Assembly (NCBI GenBank): GCA_023139045.1 | Contig: JAGLOJ010000017.1 | Span: 11,245 to 75,244, forward strand | Source of the DNA: Candidatus Sabulitectum sp. | GTDB taxonomy: Bacteria; Fermentibacterota; Fermentibacteria; Fermentibacterales; JCC-6 | Reading direction: 5' to 3' | DNA: 64,000 nt | Shown: positions 44,904-53,069 of the stretch, piece by piece | Layout: each line of letters begins with the position of its first letter | Numbering within the stretch: position 1 is the stretch's first letter | The notes under the pieces: model-generated | Seen by the model: only the letters and a program-made list of their open reading frames with translations | Databases searched by the model: none | Told to the model about the DNA's origin: nothing | Position numbers and translations under genes: made by a program

Positions 44904-45308
44904 TTACCAGAACAGTCTTCTTACAATTCCGCAATGAAGCCTCACCACAAGAGACGGAGAAAGTGCCAATGGTATCAACACCGATCCGATGCTGCGATAA
45001 CTGCCCCTTCTCAGAATAGCTGTAACTCTCTTTATTCTATCTATTGAAGCAAAATGCCACTCTGCATCATCAGGACCAGACCTGTCACCGCCGGATTCAA
45101 CCACGAATTCATTGTTCGACTTTCGAACACTCAGTACCCTGTGAACCACAAACAGTTCCTCATCCGCTTTCAGGAACACCGCAATCATACCGGCCTTGAG
45201 TTCTGTTACCGGAATATTCTCTGCTTTAAGAATATCGCCGGGAATAAGGTTCGGCCACATTGAAAGCCCCTTTACCCAGCCCAGGTCTTTGTGAGTCCGG
45301 TTTCTCAT
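44904..45308 (-). CDS. SipW/ER-type (S26B-like) signal-peptidase homologue lacking an N-terminal membrane anchor
   Basis: 134 aa. Ser motif KGLSMWPNLIPGDIL, His motif FVVHRVLSV, acidic GGDRSGPDD. No hydrophobic segment precedes the catalytic Ser. 4-nt overlap with the HprK-like gene. Confidence 0.65.
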   Translation of the reverse strand: MRNRTHKDLGWVKGLSMWPNLIPGDILKAENIPVTELKAGMIAVFLKADEELFVVHRVLSVRKSNNEFVVESGGDRSGPDDAEWHFASIDRIKRVTAILRRGSYRSIGSVLIPLALSPSLVVRLHCGIVRRLFW

Positions 45309-45817
45309 GGAAGAAAAGCTTTCGGATCTTCCTGAAGCCCGTATCTGACAATGTAAACTGGAAACAACCGGAGAAGCTCTTTAAGAAATGCTTTTGCCTG
45401 CTTCTGTTCTTCCGGCAGAATGCTCCCGAGAGCCATGATTGATGAAAGCTTCACCGCACGGTAGAAAGCGTACTCCGCAGATATCCTGTATCTGAAACCC
45501 GGTGAGCCCTTTTCCACGAAGTAAATGGCTTCAAGAACAGCACCGTCTATTTTCTCTGTTCCCATGTTCTGTTTCATGGAACCGCAGGGCAGGCATCTTA
45601 CTACTCCGTCTGTTCCACGGGCAATAACAACACTGTCATCAGCAATTGCACCGTATCTCTCTCTGGTCAGCTTGCCCATAATGGTTGATTTGCCACCTCC
45701 CGACATGGCCAGAAAAACCGAAGCTGAATCATTCTCAGCCACAGAAGACGCATGAAGAACAACTCCCTCAGGAAGCACTGCCCGGAGCTGGGCTCGAAGA
45801 ATAAATCGATCCATCAT
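45305..45817 (-). CDS. Minimal HPr-kinase-related P-loop kinase
   Basis: 170 aa. P-loop FLAMSGGGKSTI and downstream GAIADDSVVIA match the HprK C-terminal catalytic domain (GxSGxGKS ... ADD). ATGA overlap with the upstream rSAM gene. Confidence 0.7.
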   Translation of the reverse strand: MMDRFILRAQLRAVLPEGVVLHASSVAENDSASVFLAMSGGGKSTIMGKLTRERYGAIADDSVVIARGTDGVVRCLPCGSMKQNMGTEKIDGAVLEAIYFVEKGSPGFRYRISAEYAFYRAVKLSSIMALGSILPEEQKQAKAFLKELLRLFPVYIVRYGLQEDPKAFLP

Positions 45818-46857
45818 CTGTCAATCAGCCTTGTTTCCGGGAAAAGGCCTGCGTCGTACGCACGCTGGCAGAGTATATCCGGGCTGGTAACTGACCCGCC
45901 TGTTTCCATGTTGTTCACCACACACTGTCCTACACATGAGTCTCTGTGCAGGCAGCGATGACAGACTCCTTCAATACTGTCAGGAAGAGAAGACCTGATC
46001 ATCTTGTACACAGGTGAATTCTCCCATGCTTCCCGTACTGAGGTCTCAGGGAACTTGCCCCAGGCCATTTCTTTTCTGGAGAAAGCAACACCGCACAGAG
46101 AGAAAGTACCGTCAGGAAGAACCCCCATAAGATTTCTTACAGGGCAGTACCCGTGGTTCTTCAGTCTATTCACTGGAAGCAGAGCCGCAGGAACAGACGG
46201 AATCACCCCCGGTGGAGTTTCTTTGTCGATCCAGGAGAAAAATTCAAGAATTTCTTCCAGAGAATTATTATCATAAAAGTTATCGCTTTTCCCTCTGCCG
46301 GATGGTGTTATGAAATTGATTTTCAGGGTGTCTGCACCTATTTTTCGAACAAGCTTGATCATGCTTTCAACAGGCTCCCGCTCAACGCTGGAGACAGACA
46401 TAATTATCTGATTGTTTATTCCGTTCTCAACAAGTTTTCCTGCAAAACATACAGTCTCTTTCCAGGCACCGCTCTGCCCCCTGAATTCGTCATGCAGCCG
46501 GGCTTCTGCGTTGTCCAGGCTCACGGAAACATGAAAAGGCTTCTTTTCTGCAAATGCTTCCCACAGCCCTTCCGGCTGCAGAGTACCATTGGTCTCTATA
46601 ACAACTTTTGGAAAGAGGTCTGCAGAGTACCTGTATAAAGGAACAATCTCGTGGAAAAGCAGCGGCTCGCCACCTGTGAATTTCAGGTAACCGCACCCCT
46701 CTGCTTTTGACTGGGAGAGCAACGCTTTCCACTCAGAGAGAGAGAGAAGCTCCCCGGTAAACGAGCCCTCGTTCACCCAGCAGTGCCTGCAGTGCAGGTT
46801 GCAGCCAGCGGCGGGATTGATGTAAAGAGCACCTAGAGCGGGCAGTTGTGATGTCAT
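45814..46857 (-). CDS. Radical SAM / SPASM-domain peptide-maturase-like protein (second of pair)
   Basis: CNLHCRHC cluster motif. C-terminal Cys-rich region (GYCPV..LPDGTFSLCG..GVCHRCLHRDSCVGQC) is typical of SPASM/twitch auxiliary clusters. Start at ATG 46857 (ATGA overlap). Confidence 0.85.
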   Translation of the reverse strand: MTSQLPALGALYINPAAGCNLHCRHCWVNEGSFTGELLSLSEWKALLSQSKAEGCGYLKFTGGEPLLFHEIVPLYRYSADLFPKVVIETNGTLQPEGLWEAFAEKKPFHVSVSLDNAEARLHDEFRGQSGAWKETVCFAGKLVENGINNQIIMSVSSVEREPVESMIKLVRKIGADTLKINFITPSGRGKSDNFYDNNSLEEILEFFSWIDKETPPGVIPSVPAALLPVNRLKNHGYCPVRNLMGVLPDGTFSLCGVAFSRKEMAWGKFPETSVREAWENSPVYKMIRSSLPDSIEGVCHRCLHRDSCVGQCVVNNMETGGSVTSPDILCQRAYDAGLFPETRLIDR

Positions 46858-47903
46858 TTTTCTCCAAGAGCCATTTTCAGGCATGAATGCTTATCAAGAC
46901 CGATATCCTGTTTCATGTTCAGCGGCTCTACCGGGCAACCACCGGTACAGAAATTCAGGTATCTGCAATCAGTGCATTCCGGATAGTCAGATCTCTTCTG
47001 ATTCATGAATTCAGTAAATCTATTCATTTCCCCGCCGGTAAGAATTTCCTCAAGAGACTGCCGGGTAATATCACCCAGTGTAAGATCTGGAAGATGGTCA
47101 CATGGAGTGACCCTGCCATCGGGGAAAACGGCAATTTTCCCCACACCCGCGCCGCATGAATATGCTCTGTCTTTTCTCTTGCGCAGCTTTCCTTCTTTGC
47201 ATTTTAGCATTATGGCCCGCATATCCAGAAGAGTTCCCTGAATTCTGCCGGGGTACTTTACAGCAAGAATACTCAGCGCTTCCGCTGCCTTATTCACCTT
47301 TGCCTGTTCAGGAACCATATCGCGATTCAGTTCCGGACCGGCAAGAAGGAAGTTGTTGAATTTAATCCAGTCAGCGCCAAGGGAAAGAGCAAATTCTGCA
47401 GTTTCAACCACCCTGTCAACGTTAAGACTTGTTGTTGTACAATAGAATCCGAAAGGTATGTCCCCCTGGCGAAGCTTTTCCACGCCCAGAACAAGTTCTT
47501 CAAAAACACCTGCACCTCTCTGGCTGTCAACAGTTTCTTTGTCGGGGCCATCAAGACTTACCATGAATTCATTGAACCTGGAAGAGTACTTCTTTATTGT
47601 TTCAATGATCTCTGTTGTTACAAGGGTTCCGTTGGTGTTAATAGAGAATCTGAAGGGTCTTCTGTACACCTCTCCAAGGAACTGAATGAAATCCGGCCTT
47701 GCAAGAGGTTCTCCTCCTGTGATGGTGAGCTTTAGAAGCTTACTCCTCTGGAGTTCATCCAGAATCTTTCTCCATGCGGAAAGAGGAAGGTCAGTGTTCA
47801 GACCACCGTAACTGGTTACAGAGCAGTGTCTGCATCTGAGGTTGCACTTACCGGTAATAAGCAGATTTGCCTCACGGGGGGAAACCCAGTAGGGAGCCAT
47901 CAA
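46854..47903 (-). CDS. Radical SAM / SPASM-domain peptide-maturase-like protein (first of pair)
   Basis: CNLRCRHC cluster motif, GGEPL SAM-binding motif, and SPASM signature SCGAGVGKIAVFPDGRVTPC...CTDCRYLNFCTGGC. 4-nt overlap with the upstream PAS gene. Confidence 0.85.
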   Translation of the reverse strand: MMAPYWVSPREANLLITGKCNLRCRHCSVTSYGGLNTDLPLSAWRKILDELQRSKLLKLTITGGEPLARPDFIQFLGEVYRRPFRFSINTNGTLVTTEIIETIKKYSSRFNEFMVSLDGPDKETVDSQRGAGVFEELVLGVEKLRQGDIPFGFYCTTTSLNVDRVVETAEFALSLGADWIKFNNFLLAGPELNRDMVPEQAKVNKAAEALSILAVKYPGRIQGTLLDMRAIMLKCKEGKLRKRKDRAYSCGAGVGKIAVFPDGRVTPCDHLPDLTLGDITRQSLEEILTGGEMNRFTEFMNQKRSDYPECTDCRYLNFCTGGCPVEPLNMKQDIGLDKHSCLKMALGEK

Positions 47904-49147
47904 ACCAGAGCACCCTTTTCTTTGAGCTCCTTTATAAAATCATCAAGATCCCGCTCTAGATTCTGCTCTTCCGGGTAGTGCTTCTGTAATTCAGAAAGAA
48001 TATTCTCTCTGTCTTTTCCGTTGTCTATCATGTCACAGATACCGAAGGCAACCCCTTCGGTTACCTGCAGATCACCGGTATCTATGTTGAAAAGAATGCC
48101 TCCTGCAGGCTCTCTTCTAAAAACCACACCCTTTGCGTACTCGAGTTTTTTCATGGTTCCTCCTGTTGGTATTTGCTCCCCGGGCAGTATTTCGCCGTAG
48201 TGCTTCTGGCCACACTCCGGGCAGAGGCCGTGGCTGAACTCCGCCATGGAATGCTGGCTGATGAAGATTTCCAGCTGCTCCCAGTAGCCGGAGTCGTTAC
48301 GTATCCTTTTACAGTGGGCGCATATGGGTATTATACCCTTCAGAGTCTGTATCCTGGATAGAGCAGTTCGGAGTTCCACGATCAGATCCTTCCTTGCAAA
48401 CTCCGCGCTTTTGCGCCTGGTTATGTCCAGATGTGTTCCCAGCGCGCGTACAGGCTTGCCGAATTCATCCCTCTCCACAATCCTGCCCCAGTTATGCACC
48501 CATTTCCATGAGCCGTCCTTGTTCCTCATCCTGTGCTCAACCTCGAAGACTTCAGTTTCGCCCATTTCATGCTTTTTAGCGGCTTCCAGCACATCTGACA
48601 GATCATCAGGATGAATGAGCTCAAGCCAGAACTCCTTCCCGGCGGGAATTTCCCCCGAGGCGTAACCGAGCATCTCGGCCCATTCGTCACTCCTGGTTAC
48701 TTCTCCAGTTCTGAAATTTTCTTCCCACCAGGCGAGATTAGCGCTCTCCATGGTTGCAGCAAGACGCTCCCGGCTATGAAGCAGATCGGCGTACATCTTC
48801 TCGGACACCAGAGTGCTTACATTGTATTTTACAGCTCCCATCAACTCTCCTGAGAAGTTGAACATCGGGTAGCAAGTGATTGTATTAATGCGTCCTTTTG
48901 CGTCCTTTTGCTCCCTGTTGCAGGGCTCGCCACTGGCTAGAACCTGAGAAACCGGGCAGCCACCGCAGGTGGGTTCTGACTTCAGAGAACTGAATGCACA
49001 TTCACGGCAGCCTGAGCCGCAGAGGGGAATACACTCGGGACTCTGGGAACGTTTTTCAGTAGTAGCTAGAATATTGCCATTATTATCAAAGCAGATAACA
49101 GTCCCTGAAAAGACCTGTTCCGTGCAGATAGCTGCGTCATCTGGCAT
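47900..49147 (-). CDS. Cys-rich PAS-like / PAS / Cys4 domain sensor protein fused to a C-terminal PqqD-like RiPP-recognition element
   Basis: 415 aa. Residues 1-100 hold 10 Cys (CIPLCGSGCREC..CGGCP). Residues ~125-245 are a canonical PAS (HPDDL..EHRMRNKDGSWKWV..DITRRK). Residues ~268-320 read IPICAHCKRIRNDSGYWEQLE..FSHGLCPEC. Residues 332-415 (MKKLEYAKGVVFRREPAGGILFNIDTGDLQVTEGVAFGICDMID..) are PqqD-like. Confidence 0.8.
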   Translation of the reverse strand: MPDDAAICTEQVFSGTVICFDNNGNILATTEKRSQSPECIPLCGSGCRECAFSSLKSEPTCGGCPVSQVLASGEPCNREQKDAKGRINTITCYPMFNFSGELMGAVKYNVSTLVSEKMYADLLHSRERLAATMESANLAWWEENFRTGEVTRSDEWAEMLGYASGEIPAGKEFWLELIHPDDLSDVLEAAKKHEMGETEVFEVEHRMRNKDGSWKWVHNWGRIVERDEFGKPVRALGTHLDITRRKSAEFARKDLIVELRTALSRIQTLKGIIPICAHCKRIRNDSGYWEQLEIFISQHSMAEFSHGLCPECGQKHYGEILPGEQIPTGGTMKKLEYAKGVVFRREPAGGILFNIDTGDLQVTEGVAFGICDMIDNGKDRENILSELQKHYPEEQNLERDLDDFIKELKEKGALV

Positions 49148-49254
49148 AGACTGAATCCGTTTTCATATTTTAAGTGACCGGGTGTGCTGCATCCGGCTGG
49201 AAAATAACGACCACATCAATACATCTAAAAGTGTCAGGATGTTCGTCAAGAGTC

Positions 49255-49387
49255 AATTCGATCAGTATAGGTTCTGATCAGGTGTCAGAACTGCCCTCGG
49301 TAATATAGCTTGACCATTTCCGAAAAGGGTATCGTAACACCACCCTCGCAGGTTGATCAGCCAAGAATTCGATCAATTCCGGATCAG
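49255..49387. repeat. Cluster of GATCAG/GATCAA motifs in the divergent intergenic region
   Basis: GATCAG at 49260, 49276, 49355 and 49382, plus GATCAA at 49371. AATTCGATCA occurs twice (49255, 49366). GTGTCAG occurs just upstream at 49231 and within the span at 49283. Confidence 0.6.
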
Positions 49388-49849
49388 TGTGGTAAATTCT
49401 ATCTCAGATTGTACCCAAAGCTTGCAGTTATCGCCTTCATTTATCAGCAAATATCGAAAACGAATATACTCCACCACCGGGAAGAAGCTTTTTATTTTAG
49501 CTTACGAACTGGTATAAGCTTTATAGATTGGCTCTGGATAAGGTATGTGAACCCGATACGGATTACATTCCATGGCAGGATGGTATTCCTGAGATAAAAA
49601 TCGCTTAGGAACAAAGTAATCAGCTTCATGGGTGAGATTTACCCCAATGCGAAGTTTATCATAAGAATCAGAGAGATCTTCATTGACTTCGGAGGAGTTT
49701 GGCAGTATGGTTAGCTTTAGGAAGGGAAATGGTGACATCTGCGAATGGATGAGCTGCTTGGGGAGCAGGTAGTATTACGGAAAATCCAATTTCATATTGC
49801 TCAACAGCTTTCCGCAGAGTAACAGGATACAGAGATAAGGAAGGATAGA

Positions 49850-51322
49850 ATGAATAGCAGAATATTAGCAGTACTGCTGGTTTTAGCAGTTTGCCCGACG
49901 CTTCAGGCAGCGGACATCTGGGTGATGGGTTATTACGTGGGATACCATGTGGGTCTGCAGTCACCGAACGAAGTAGACTACTCAACCATGACACACATAA
50001 TGGTAGGTGCAGCAATTCCCCAGAATGACGGTACTTTTGACACGAATTTCTATATGGGCTCATCTGGACCTGCCTGGGCGCAGGAAACTGTGAATCTTGC
50101 CCATACTGCTGGTATCAAGGCAGTACTGATGGTAGGAGGAGCCGGTAGCCACGCAGCCTTCCAGGCAACACAGAATCCCACAGTAAGAGCTGCCTTTGTT
50201 TCGAATCTTTCTCAGATAGTCAACAGCTACGGATTCGACGGCATAGACCTCGACTGGGAACCCATTCCCGCCTCTGACCGGGACGACATCCTTGCCCTCT
50301 CGCAAGACCTGCGCACTGCCATGCCAGACAAGGTGATGACCATCCCCCTGGGATGGAGCAACAGCAACTTTCCATTGACCGATTCCTTCTGGGGACAACT
50401 CTCTCAGTACTTCGACAGAGTAAACATGATGTCCTACCATATGACATGGATTGGCGGTGGATGGGAGAGCTGGCATTCATCCGCTCTTTATGGCGAGACG
50501 CCGACCACTCCATCCTCAATCGACCACACTGTGAGTGCATATCTGGCATCAGGCATACCCGGGAATAAGATAGGAATAGGAATAGGTTTTTTTGGTGAGC
50601 CATATGAGAATGGCAGCTGGTCGGGCGGTATCTTCGTTCACAATACCAGCCCTCCATATATTACCGAACCGGGGCAGAGCACAACAGAAGCTGCTATACG
50701 CGTCAGCGATAACTGGTTCTCTTACAGCAATATCATCCGCTACGTCTACGACAGTAACGCAAGGGAGTGGGACGACACAGCAAAGGTTCCCTACCTGAGT
50801 TTTGACACACCTTTCGAGAGTCCATGGCCAACGTGGCCAACGCCACCAATCACAACCACCTACGTTACTTATGAGGACGTGGAGTCTATAGCTGCAAAGG
50901 GGCTGTACGTACACAATGAGGAACTGGGGGGCTGCATCATCTGGACCATATCCCAGGGTTATCTGGATTGGCTCTCCTCAGGAGAGAAGGATCCACTCAT
51001 GAAGGCCGTGAAGATCGCCTTCCTGGAAACGACAGCGATCGAACAGTCATCGCCGGCACCGATTGTTTCATCATTCTCTGCGTATCCGAATCCGGTTTCA
51101 TCCCTATCGACTATTCAGTACAATCTTCTTGAACAGTCTCATGTTACGATTGAAGTATTCGACATATCCGGGCGTCCCATGCGAACAGTACAGGATGGTT
51201 TTGAACAGAAAGGAGAACACTCATTCCTGTTCCAGACTGCTGAACTGCCAGCGGGTGTATACATGCTGAGATTGGCCTCTGACTCTCAGACCATAACGCA
51301 GCGAATAGTCATAGCAAGGTAG
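49850..51322 (+). CDS. Secreted GH18 glycoside hydrolase (chitinase-like) with T9SS type-A C-terminal sorting domain
   Basis: Signal peptide MNSRILAVLLVLAVCPTLQA. GH18 catalytic motif FDGIDLDWEP. The last ~80 aa (YPNPVSSLSTIQYNL..VTIEVFDISGRPMRTV...LPAGVYMLRL) match the Por secretion tail pattern. Confidence 0.85.
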   Translation: MNSRILAVLLVLAVCPTLQAADIWVMGYYVGYHVGLQSPNEVDYSTMTHIMVGAAIPQNDGTFDTNFYMGSSGPAWAQETVNLAHTAGIKAVLMVGGAGSHAAFQATQNPTVRAAFVSNLSQIVNSYGFDGIDLDWEPIPASDRDDILALSQDLRTAMPDKVMTIPLGWSNSNFPLTDSFWGQLSQYFDRVNMMSYHMTWIGGGWESWHSSALYGETPTTPSSIDHTVSAYLASGIPGNKIGIGIGFFGEPYENGSWSGGIFVHNTSPPYITEPGQSTTEAAIRVSDNWFSYSNIIRYVYDSNAREWDDTAKVPYLSFDTPFESPWPTWPTPPITTTYVTYEDVESIAAKGLYVHNEELGGCIIWTISQGYLDWLSSGEKDPLMKAVKIAFLETTAIEQSSPAPIVSSFSAYPNPVSSLSTIQYNLLEQSHVTIEVFDISGRPMRTVQDGFEQKGEHSFLFQTAELPAGVYMLRLASDSQTITQRIVIAR

Positions 51323-51351
51323 AATAGCTACTGTCAGAACCAGTTCTCGGG

Positions 51352-51951
51352 CTAGAAAGAGGCTTTTATTGCACCCCAGCTGTTTCGCTGAAGAGCAACA
51401 GGTGTTCTCAGCTCGAAAAACGAATCCCAGCTGTGGCCCTGTTCTGCAAAGGAATGGTACTGTCCACCCTCAAAGTACCACATAGGTGAGCCGAACACCA
51501 CCGGATCCTGGTAGAGTACACAAGAATTGAAAACTACACCGGTAACAAGCCAGTACAAATTACCTGCATCCACTGCAACAGACTGCCCCAGATCAAGTGT
51601 CATTTCATAGATAGGCTGAGCGCTGAGAGAGTCGCCTGTAGCAGAGTACGAGACAGTGAAATTCCCGGAAATGATCGAAGTGGCATTATTGGGATTTATG
51701 TCACCTGTGTCCTGTGTGATCTTCAGGAATACCTCAGTCGGTGGTGATGCATTAAAATACTGATAGATGGTAACATGCCTGAAATACCCGGTAAAATCAG
51801 GAGTGAAATCATCAGCCACACTGGTGTAGCATGTGCCACCGTCTACAGAACCAAAGTCATAACTCTGTGTGAAAATTGCATCGCTGGCATGCCCGGAAAC
51901 AAAAGGAGTCAAAACCAGCGCAACAACAACCGATCCAATAGTACCCTTCAT
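51352..51951 (-). CDS. Small secreted protein, paralogue family B, C-terminal SWGAIKASF
   Basis: Start at MKGTIGSVVVALVLTPFVSGHA (GGGGGAGG upstream). Homologous to 52101..52697 throughout (ADDF, DTGDINPNNATS, YQDPVVFG, WDSFFELRTPVAL). Confidence 0.65.
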   Translation of the reverse strand: MKGTIGSVVVALVLTPFVSGHASDAIFTQSYDFGSVDGGTCYTSVADDFTPDFTGYFRHVTIYQYFNASPPTEVFLKITQDTGDINPNNATSIISGNFTVSYSATGDSLSAQPIYEMTLDLGQSVAVDAGNLYWLVTGVVFNSCVLYQDPVVFGSPMWYFEGGQYHSFAEQGHSWDSFFELRTPVALQRNSWGAIKASF

Positions 51952-52100
51952 ATACCTCCCCCTCGAAATGCGACCCCACAAATCGTTTATCCTCTCTGAT
52001 TATAGTAAACACATTGACCTGCGAACAGTTCCACGAATTCGCTTACAGGGTGAAATCTGAAAGCAAACTTATGTTGCACGAGTCAAGACGGATAAATCAA

Positions 52101-52697
52101 CTAGAACGAAGCCTTTATGGACCCCCAGCTGCTTCGCTCAAGGGCTACTGGTGTTCTTATTTCGAAAAATGAATCCCAGTTATAACCACTTTCTGACAGT
52201 TTATGATATTGACCTGCTGTAAAATTCCACATTGATGTGCCAAAAACAACTGGATCCTGGTAGACCAAGTATGAACCGGAGACAGTGCCTACCTCAAGCC
52301 AGTAGAGCTCGCCAACAATTACTGAGGTAGTTGAAGGAAATGAAAAGGTAACTTCATTGATTGAGTAACCAAACAACGAATCACCTGTAGCAACGATGGA
52401 GGGAACAAGATTTCCGGAAATAAGTGATGTAGCAGTATTCGGATCAATATCACCATTGTCTTCGGTAATCTTAATAAAGATATCCACTGGAGGAGTGCCT
52501 GTAAAGATCATCCACAACACAACAAATTGGCAATCACCAGAGAAATTTGGAACAAAATCATCTGCCAGGCTAGGAGACTGAGCACCCCCGTCTACATTAC
52601 TGAAATTATAAGTTTGTGCAAATATGGCATTGCCTGTCTGGGCAAAAGCAGACAGAGCAAAAACAGATACAACCAACAACAATATGGAAAATTTCAT
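52101..52697 (-). CDS. Small secreted protein, paralogue family B, C-terminal SWGSIKASF
   Basis: Start at MKFSILLLVVSVFALSAFA. Tandem paralogue of 51352..51951. Confidence 0.65.
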   Translation of the reverse strand: MKFSILLLVVSVFALSAFAQTGNAIFAQTYNFSNVDGGAQSPSLADDFVPNFSGDCQFVVLWMIFTGTPPVDIFIKITEDNGDIDPNTATSLISGNLVPSIVATGDSLFGYSINEVTFSFPSTTSVIVGELYWLEVGTVSGSYLVYQDPVVFGTSMWNFTAGQYHKLSESGYNWDSFFEIRTPVALERSSWGSIKASF

Positions 52698-52835
52698 TTT
52701 CAACTCCTTGGAAGACAATACTCAACGCAGCCCTATAATAACAAACAAATTGCTTCCTGCACAGGTTCCACCACAAGCCATTGTCCGCAAGTTCTCAGGA
52801 TAGTATTATTGTACCATGAAGAAAGGAAATGTATA

Positions 52836-53069
52836 ATGTTTTTTCCAGAGAAATACAAGAAGCCTGTTCTGCAGAGCGTCGTTGAAGCATCACAAAATGG
52901 CTGGAACGCAACATGCAGTACTGGAACTACACCTGGATCGGGTGGACTTGATTGTCCTGCCGGTGATGGTGCAGGAGCTGCAAAAGGCGGGTTTGACGGA
53001 CGACTTTACACCAACCCCGACAATTCTTCCAGGCTGCTGAATCCTGAAGATGTGAACAGCGGGCGTTAA
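52836..53069 (+). CDS. Possible small Gly-rich protein (77 aa), unknown function
   Basis: ATG 52836 is preceded by GAAAGGAAA at ~8 nt. Product: MFFPEKYKKPVLQSVVEASQNGWNATCSTGTTPGSGGLDCPAGDGAGAAKGG... No homology recognised. The upstream part of track ORF 52527..53069 is antisense to a real gene. Confidence 0.25.
   Translation: MFFPEKYKKPVLQSVVEASQNGWNATCSTGTTPGSGGLDCPAGDGAGAAKGGFDGRLYTNPDNSSRLLNPEDVNSGR

Follow-up and report, generated by a model that had tools for sequence, protein, structure and literature searches.

The PAS–RRE reading frame and its two parts

The stretch of DNA considered here, 64 kb of contig JAGLOJ010000017.1 from Candidatus Sabulitectum sp. (below: the window), carries on its minus strand an open reading frame of 415 codons (47900..49147) in which a PAS-type sensor protein continues into a RiPP recognition element (RRE) of the PqqD family, the domain that is encoded by the first gene of a radical SAM cassette in all relatives. 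From the N-terminus onwards, and all on the same strand, the predicted protein consists of a cysteine-rich region (residues 1–111, 48815..49147), a canonical PAS domain (residues 138–241, 48425..48736), a small module with four conserved cysteines, called Cys4 below (residues 272–317, 48197..48334), a linker of seven residues, QIPTGGT (48155..48175), and the ScmD-like RRE of 84 amino acids (47900..48154). An earlier note, made from the sequence alone, had placed the PAS/Cys4 and PqqD parts in one frame, and this is indeed the case: 415 codons are open and no stop codon separates the two parts.

The identification of the C-terminal segment as a genuine winged-helix RRE, also put forward in that note, is upheld by profile score, predicted structure and structural comparison. 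The PqqD profile (PF05402) matches residues 351–413 of the fusion with 31.4 bits and the 84-residue segment by itself with 35.2 bits, against a cut-off of 23.4. The PAS and PqqD halves were modelled separately with AlphaFold2 (AF2), and the model of the last 84 residues, built with 47 orthologues, has the order beta-beta-beta-alpha-alpha-alpha (strands 10–15, 18–23 and 28–32; helices 35–44, 49–59 and 66–80) at a predicted local distance difference test score (pLDDT) of 81. Foldseek superimposes it on the lasso peptide B1 protein TbiB1 with bound leader (5v1v) with a TM score of 0.90 and a root-mean-square deviation of 1.4 Å; further matches are the lasso B1 protein 6jx3, CteB, SuiB and PqqD (5sxy). 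The resemblance to the lasso B1 proteins (TbiB1, 5v1v/5v1u; 6jx3) comprises the length of about 84 residues, the beta3-alpha3 winged-helix fold and, in the relatives of the window, a small gene of its own that opens a peptide-modification operon. The cassette genes differ from a lasso system in that they lack B2 cysteine protease and C (asparagine-synthetase-like) cyclase domains, the partners of the RRE being two radical SAM/SPASM proteins, and only in the window does the frame of a preceding PAS gene continue into that of the RRE.

The PAS part is equally well defined. Pfam recognizes PAS_3 at residues 150–239 (E 9e-23), and in the AF2 model of residues 1–331, which was built on 26 family members and has a mean pLDDT of 77.6, the domain reaches values above 94. 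The model arranges the protein as an N-terminal PAS-like fold (approximately residues 17–111, a beta-sheet with a poorly predicted, low-confidence cysteine-rich loop), a helix, the PAS domain at 138–241, a long helix at 243–270 and the Cys4 module at 272–317; the tail behind this module, including the linker, is predicted to be disordered. In structural comparison, residues 1–331 come closest to sensors with tandem PAS domains, among them the Brucella LOV-PAS-HK protein. Ten cysteines occur in residues 1–96 (48860..49147, minus strand) with the spacing C..C..CxxxCxxxCxxC...CxxC...C...C, and the element CxGCxEC...CxGCP is kept in three homologues (P0003–P0005). The closest relative (P0002, at locus L009) lacks the cysteine-rich region as called, the upstream DNA of L009 being in other frames. 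This region, which has no sequence match in Pfam, NCBIfam or the PDB, may be a metal- or Fe-S-sensing element.

The Cys4 module (PICxxCxxxR...W...HxxCxxC) is the usual end of the family to which the PAS part belongs. Across 25 homologues its residues C276, C279, H306, C309 and C312 do not vary, and it has no sequence match in Pfam, NCBIfam or the PDB. In its fuller form, PICxxCKKIRD..W...HS...FSHGxCPxC, it spans about 50 amino acids, and the full-length search detected it at the C-terminus of other proteins as well, at 50–76% identity across 12–20% of the query; the only other recognized domains of the proteins that end in it are REC, GAF, HAMP, dCache, MASE3 or PAS. It looks like a widespread uncharacterised output domain, probably one that binds zinc. 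The first 324 residues of the fused frame form a full member of the group of stand-alone proteins with PAS and PICxxCKKIRD...HGxCPxC (P0002–P0026): PAS_3 is followed by PICxxC...HxxCxxC, every invariant residue is present, and the identity to the Aegiribacteria protein P0002 is 86%. The difference lies at the end. The relatives are 230–331 amino acids long and all 25 stop 5–25 residues after the Cys4 motif, whereas the fused frame, instead of ending within about 25 residues of the module, runs on for 98 residues past Y317 into PqqD.

Stand-alone relatives and an inserted segment

A search with the 84-residue segment yielded 58 protein clusters from Ca. Sabulitectum, Ca. Aegiribacteria and Fermentibacteraceae with 57–94% identity. 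All represent stand-alone proteins that start at the equivalent ATG, mostly of exactly 84 and never of more than 106 amino acids. When the 415-residue protein was used as a query against a database of 5.8 billion clusters, the only protein found to join PAS_3 to PqqD was that of the window itself, and no PAS gene lies beside PqqD at about 30 orthologous loci. A PqqD profile search of 1.84 billion representatives gave mostly stand-alone proteins of about 85 amino acids, and among the 150 best matches, which were examined, there was no fusion to PAS or to any other sensor; the long matches scanned were fusions of an RRE to a radical SAM/SPASM protein or to an S24/S26 peptidase, tandem RREs, and TPR-repeat proteins that matched only in multiple short stretches and lack a PqqD domain. 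The closest PAS relatives occur in unrelated neighbourhoods; the genes of P0003–P0005 are followed by an O-methyltransferase gene, and P0002 ends in ...HYSEILPEE-TGA, after which AT-rich non-coding DNA follows. One 98-residue PqqD protein annotated as partial (P0123) was considered as a second fusion cut off by a contig end and was rejected, its 14 additional upstream codons being intergenic DNA (MECYIGEYKPTGGA) and not PAS. Combined alignments of the fusion with its PAS and PqqD homologues were left unused, as they were misaligned (68 identities for P0002, compared to 198).

The origin of the arrangement becomes visible when the surroundings are compared, for which 7 loci from genomes, 23 from metagenomes and 6 retrieved through protein identity were available. 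In L017, another Ca. Sabulitectum locus, the order is TPR protein, LPG synthase, a 205-aa and a 209-aa secreted protein, about 100 nt of intergenic DNA, PqqD, the ScmE-like, ScmF-like, ScmC-like and S26-like genes, a 131-aa protein, a TPR protein, a 103-aa protein and SecA; L016, L018, L022, L023, L045, L046 and L047 agree with this arrangement. In more distant lineages the flanks are different, and PqqD is always the first gene of a five-gene core. The window has the order of L017 except that the 209-aa gene is separated from PqqD by an additional segment of about 3.2 kb (approximate bounds 48176..51340, by synteny with L017, L016, L018, L023, L046 and L047), which takes the place of nearly all of the roughly 100 nt of ancestral intergenic DNA. 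The segment contains the body of the PAS gene and, on the plus strand, a gene for a GH18 chitinase with a C-terminal domain of the type IX secretion system (Por_Secre_tail; 49850..51322). The two genes point away from each other, with about 700 nt of non-coding DNA between them (49148..49849). The GC content of the segment (0.44–0.53) is no different from that of its flanks. A repeat search found neither direct nor inverted repeats flanking it, and a transposon origin is thus unsupported.

At base level, the junction coincides with the place of the PAS stop codon. It reads CCC-GGG-GAG-CAA-ATA-CCA-ACA-GGA-GGA-ACC-ATG in the window, GGG-GAA-TAA-ATA-CCA-ACT-GGA-GGA-ACC-ATG in L016, the closest relative of the cassette, and CCC-GAG-GAG-TGA in L009, the locus of the closest PAS relative. 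The CAA codon at 48173–48175 thus sits where L016 has TAA and L009 has TGA, and the linker that it opens is a translated remnant of the ancestral intergenic region, namely its final 21 nt with the ribosome-binding site included. In other relatives the bridging codon is TAT or TGT. The earlier note had reasoned that a stop codon between the modules in orthologues would point to a sequencing or assembly error. The relatives do largely show this, yet an error does not follow from it; the stops at the bridging codon together with the absence of PAS from the orthologous loci imply a recent, lineage-specific rearrangement.

The sequence itself was recovered twice. A Logan contig of 2259 nt from run SRR13892605 (L011) is identical to 47494..49752 of the window, with 0 mismatches and with the whole fused frame included, and a 129-kb scaffold from ENA (L010) shows 0 mismatches across 21,248 compared bases. 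Two assemblies agree, so the fused frame is not the product of a single assembler. Both were probably made from the same reads, however, and their agreement leaves room for a minority allele. A single base separates the fused frame from two ordinary adjacent genes: if the true base at 48175 were T, the codon would be TAA as in L016, the PAS protein would end in ...ILPGE exactly like its 86%-identical relative, and the PqqD gene beside it would be separate. We nevertheless consider a wrong base call or a minority allele rather unlikely, since two assemblers report the same base over 2259 nt that are free of mismatches, consensus substitution errors are rare in short-read assemblies, and the TAT and TGT codons in other relatives indicate that a sense codon is not unusual at this position. 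Contigs L012, L013/L015 and L014, from two NCBI assemblies of metagenome-assembled genomes and the Logan assembly of SRR13892604, share their first base, which lies 44 nt upstream of the PqqD ATG. That they begin together at what is the insertion site in the window hints at structural variation between strains or at a branch in the assembly graph.

The direction of the change can be read from the relationships of the cassette. The window belongs with the Sabulitectum loci (95% identity to L016 for PqqD and 91% for ScmE), and since it nests among them the insertion is derived. The reverse, in which PAS was the original regulator of the cassette and was deleted in the other lineages, could draw on a resemblance between the 3' end of the PAS gene (GGAGTGT...ATACT...GGGGAG) and the intergenic region of the relatives (GGAGTGTTATATTGGGGAG). 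This resemblance amounts to just 5–7 nt per block, whereas all other members of Sabulitectum and the distant lineages lack PAS at the site and many independent losses would be required, which makes ancestral adjacency the least probable of the explanations considered here. In one Ca. Sabulitectum-like population the GH18 and PAS segment of about 3.2 kb was placed directly before the PqqD ribosome-binding site. The PAS frame now reads through seven codons of former intergenic DNA into the PqqD gene, which is in frame by chance. The 3' end of the PAS gene and the ancestral intergenic DNA share a short stretch of similarity, ATAYT...GGGGAR, and an illegitimate recombination may have been guided by it. 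The stop codon may have been lost in the join itself; alternatively, the join first left a TAA, and a T-to-C change opened the frame afterwards.

Expression of the RRE and the meaning of the fusion

The ATG at 48154–48152 is preceded at a distance of 4 nt by the Shine-Dalgarno sequence AGGAGG (48159..48164, minus strand), as the earlier note had observed, and its view that a stand-alone RRE could start from this pair receives support from the relatives: the orthologous stand-alone PqqD genes begin at that very ATG, which identifies it as the ancestral start codon of the PqqD gene, with its ancestral ribosome-binding site. AGGAGG at this spacing from an ATG occurs once in the window, compared to about 0.9 expected by chance, a count that is not significant by itself. 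The signal is meaningful because all orthologous stand-alone PqqD genes have kept both GGAGGA and the ATG at their start; the version in the window, AGGAGG, is slightly stronger than the TGGAGG of the relatives. The RNA around the internal start is also less structured than shuffled sequences (z +1.8; it folds less well than 198 of 200). As the ribosome-binding site and start codon are intact and lie in weakly structured RNA, internal initiation should continue and still yield the 84-residue protein. A stand-alone RRE is thus probably still made, and it is most likely the working chaperone. Downstream translational coupling should be unchanged, because the ATG of the ScmE-like gene overlaps the PqqD stop codon (TGATG).

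Transcription of the cassette now probably starts from the promoter of the PAS gene, since hardly anything of the conserved intergenic DNA upstream is left after the replacement. Sabulitectum-type loci carry a conserved element, GG(A/G)GTGTTATATTGGGG, about 25–45 nt before the PqqD start (L016 1437–1496, L017 3690–3750, L012 1–44, L022, L023, L046), which reads like an extended -10 box or, in L017, part of a hairpin; it is gone from the window, where the insertion replaced it. Scans for sigma-70 promoters and terminators gave nothing above shuffled sequences in either the ancestral intergenic region or the window, and they provided no interpretation for the conserved GGTGTTATATTGGGG element of the relatives.

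A substrate for the RRE that would have no need of the PAS part can be proposed as well. A small open reading frame of 77 codons on the plus strand (52836..53069) encodes a candidate precursor peptide with a leader of the type FPxxYxxPxL and a core rich in Cys, Gly, Ser, Thr and Pro. Lasso peptide precursors have YxxPxL as the conserved motif of their leaders (PMC10368454), which fits the finding that lasso B1 proteins are the closest structural relatives of the RRE, and the peptide is a plausible RRE substrate. The RRE could bind the leader, as this motif suggests, and present the precursor to the two radical SAM enzymes. The 415-residue protein is probably made as well, as a by-product that would be tolerated. 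It may still bind leader, since the linker is predicted to be disordered and natural fusions place domains at the N-terminus of the RRE; this N-terminus lies far from the beta3/alpha3 peptide cleft.

The earlier note had further suggested that the fusion could couple peptide maturation to a sensed signal. A PAS/Cys-rich sensor tethered to the RRE would then make the binding of the leader, or the way in which the radical SAM enzymes are recruited, dependent on a signal such as redox or metal. The frame is intact, both halves are predicted to be well-folded and independent on a flexible linker, and RREs tolerate fusion at the N-terminus. Natural fusions of RREs to other proteins have been described (PMC7470986), and the PqqD in the structure 5sxy was obtained by truncation of a naturally fused PqqCD protein. 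The insertion, moreover, probably also brought the cassette under the transcription of the PAS gene. In CteB, SuiB, PqqCD and the peptidase_S24/S26-PqqD proteins the RRE is likewise covalently joined to another protein, also C-terminally, and in relatives it forms the C-terminal end of radical SAM/SPASM proteins or S24/S26 peptidases. These natural fusions, however, connect it to a biosynthetic partner and are conserved in many genomes, whereas in the window the partner is an unrelated sensor, in one population. Among distant PqqD relatives, P0190, P0218 and P0242 have PqqD at the C-terminus of Peptidase_S24/S26, and in P0184 and P0250 it stands at the C-terminus of a radical SAM/SPASM protein and not at the usual N-terminus.

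As a designed arrangement sensor-coupled maturation is not supported, the fusion being a singleton (among the 58 PqqD clusters, the approximately 30 loci and the 5.8-billion-cluster database, and with no sensor fusion in the 150 best profile matches) with TAA and TGA at the bridging codon in L016 and L009. The linker is merely old intergenic DNA with a ribosome-binding site, and a stop-free in-frame join over 21 nt is likely to arise by chance. The PAS family, furthermore, has a conserved C-terminal output module of its own, and its members usually occur in unrelated neighbourhoods. We regard functional coupling therefore as very unlikely. A variant in which the architecture is very young yet functional, with a sensor-tethered chaperone and a co-produced short RRE that together gate maturation post-translationally, appears to us less likely still.

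Comparison of the loci thus favours another interpretation, which we hold with considerable confidence: the fusion is a one-off read-through that resulted from a local rearrangement, of an RRE that is normally the discrete 84-aa product of the first cassette gene. Several points count against this interpretation or limit its reach. Two assemblers arrived at the fused allele with 0 mismatches, and it bears no obvious sign of error; whether one or two products arise from the frame is deduced from sequence features; the promoter scans gave no usable signal; the exact point of recombination cannot be fixed because of the ATAYT...GGGGAR similarity; the assignment of the precursor is based on conservation, position and motif only; and neutrality of the accident is argued from the lack of conservation rather than demonstrated.

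If the one-off read-through is accepted, the locus offers a case in which the birth of a gene fusion has been caught in the act, an insertion junction having removed a stop codon and turned the ribosome-binding site of the downstream gene into a linker. It also advises caution, since function should not be read into singleton fusions in metagenome-assembled genomes. As a PAS–RRE fusion the protein matters little, and the more useful result is the cassette with its newly proposed precursor family.

The cassette, its candidate precursor and neighbouring genes

The genes that follow the RRE on the minus strand are all intact and of full length, and thus the locus is not decaying. They encode an ScmE-like radical SAM/SPASM enzyme (46854..47900, with Radical_SAM and SPASM domains), an ScmF-like radical SAM/SPASM enzyme (45814..46884, with a probable start at 46857 that overlaps the ScmE-like stop), a ScmC/HprK-related P-loop protein of 170 amino acids (45305..45817; weak matches to the NCBIfam models HprK_rel_A, HprK_rel_B and ScmC and to PF27840) and a homologue of S26/S24-type (archaeal/SipW-like) signal peptidases (44904..45308; TIGR02228, E 1e-9, below the cut-off). 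The last is a candidate leader peptidase, a role that is supported by the fusion of related RREs to S24/S26 peptidases.

The combination, within one operon, of a PqqD homologue, two SPASM enzymes with best matches to ScmE and ScmF and an HprK/ScmC-like protein recalls the SynChlorMet system (NCBIfam TIGR04248–TIGR04251). All four proteins, however, remain far below the equivalog cut-offs (13.9 bits against 100 for ScmD, 174.6 against 400 for ScmE with TIGR04250, 227.2 against 400 for ScmF with TIGR04251, and 17.4 against 125 for ScmC), the ScmC-like protein of the window is only 170 amino acids long, and the cassette has in addition an S26-like peptidase and a precursor that can be identified. 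Judged by these scores and this gene content, the cassette is SCM-like and not a member of the SynChlorMet family. In the searches of this analysis it was found only in Fermentibacterota, and nothing relevant was found in the literature on SynChlorMet, TIGR04250/TIGR04251 or radical SAM proteins of Fermentibacteria.

What is found across Fermentibacterota at one chromosomal site is thus a lasso-type RRE with a YxxPxL leader, two SPASM enzymes, an HprK-like protein and an S26-like peptidase, for which a hitherto unannotated precursor family can now be proposed. The cassette lies between the LPG-synthase/TPR genes and p131-TPR-p103-secA in L020, L024, L027–L029, L031, L032, L034, L036, L037, the window and L017; relative to these flanks it is inverted in most Fermentibacterota as compared to the Sabulitectum type. 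A fixed site across 40–90% identity suggests a core rather than a strain-variable function.

The precursor family came to light when conserved gaps after the S26-like gene were checked, where a small open reading frame of 72–115 codons occurs in 13 loci. Homologues are encoded, for example, in L019 (4471–4698), L020 (10124–10381), L027 (8346–8612), L029 (8292–8549) and L032 (8279–8524). In most relatives the gene follows directly after the S26-like gene, whereas in the window it is detached, on the opposite strand and 4.7 kb from PqqD. The residues F3, P4, Y7, P10, L12, A18, G22, W23, A25, C27, G30, C40 and G43 are invariant, the leader reads FPxxYxxPxL...GWxAxC, the core is rich in Cys, Gly, Ser, Thr, Pro and Asn, and SRLINPGDVSxGL is often present at the C-terminus. 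The family has no entry in Pfam or NCBIfam and no PDB sequence match, and its 37 homologous clusters are all unnamed or annotated as 'hypothetical'.

The two paralogous secreted proteins of about 205 amino acids, each with a signal peptide, are encoded in the window at 51352..51981 and 52101..52718, both on the minus strand. They have no Pfam, NCBIfam or PDB sequence match and share a conserved C-terminal tail, ...FFE(L/I)RTPVAL(Q/E)R(N/S)SWG(A/S)IKASF. They might conceivably be connected with the cassette, as its substrate or as cargo for the S26-like peptidase. In Sabulitectum loci their genes are located directly upstream of the cassette, and a copy is present nearby in other lineages.

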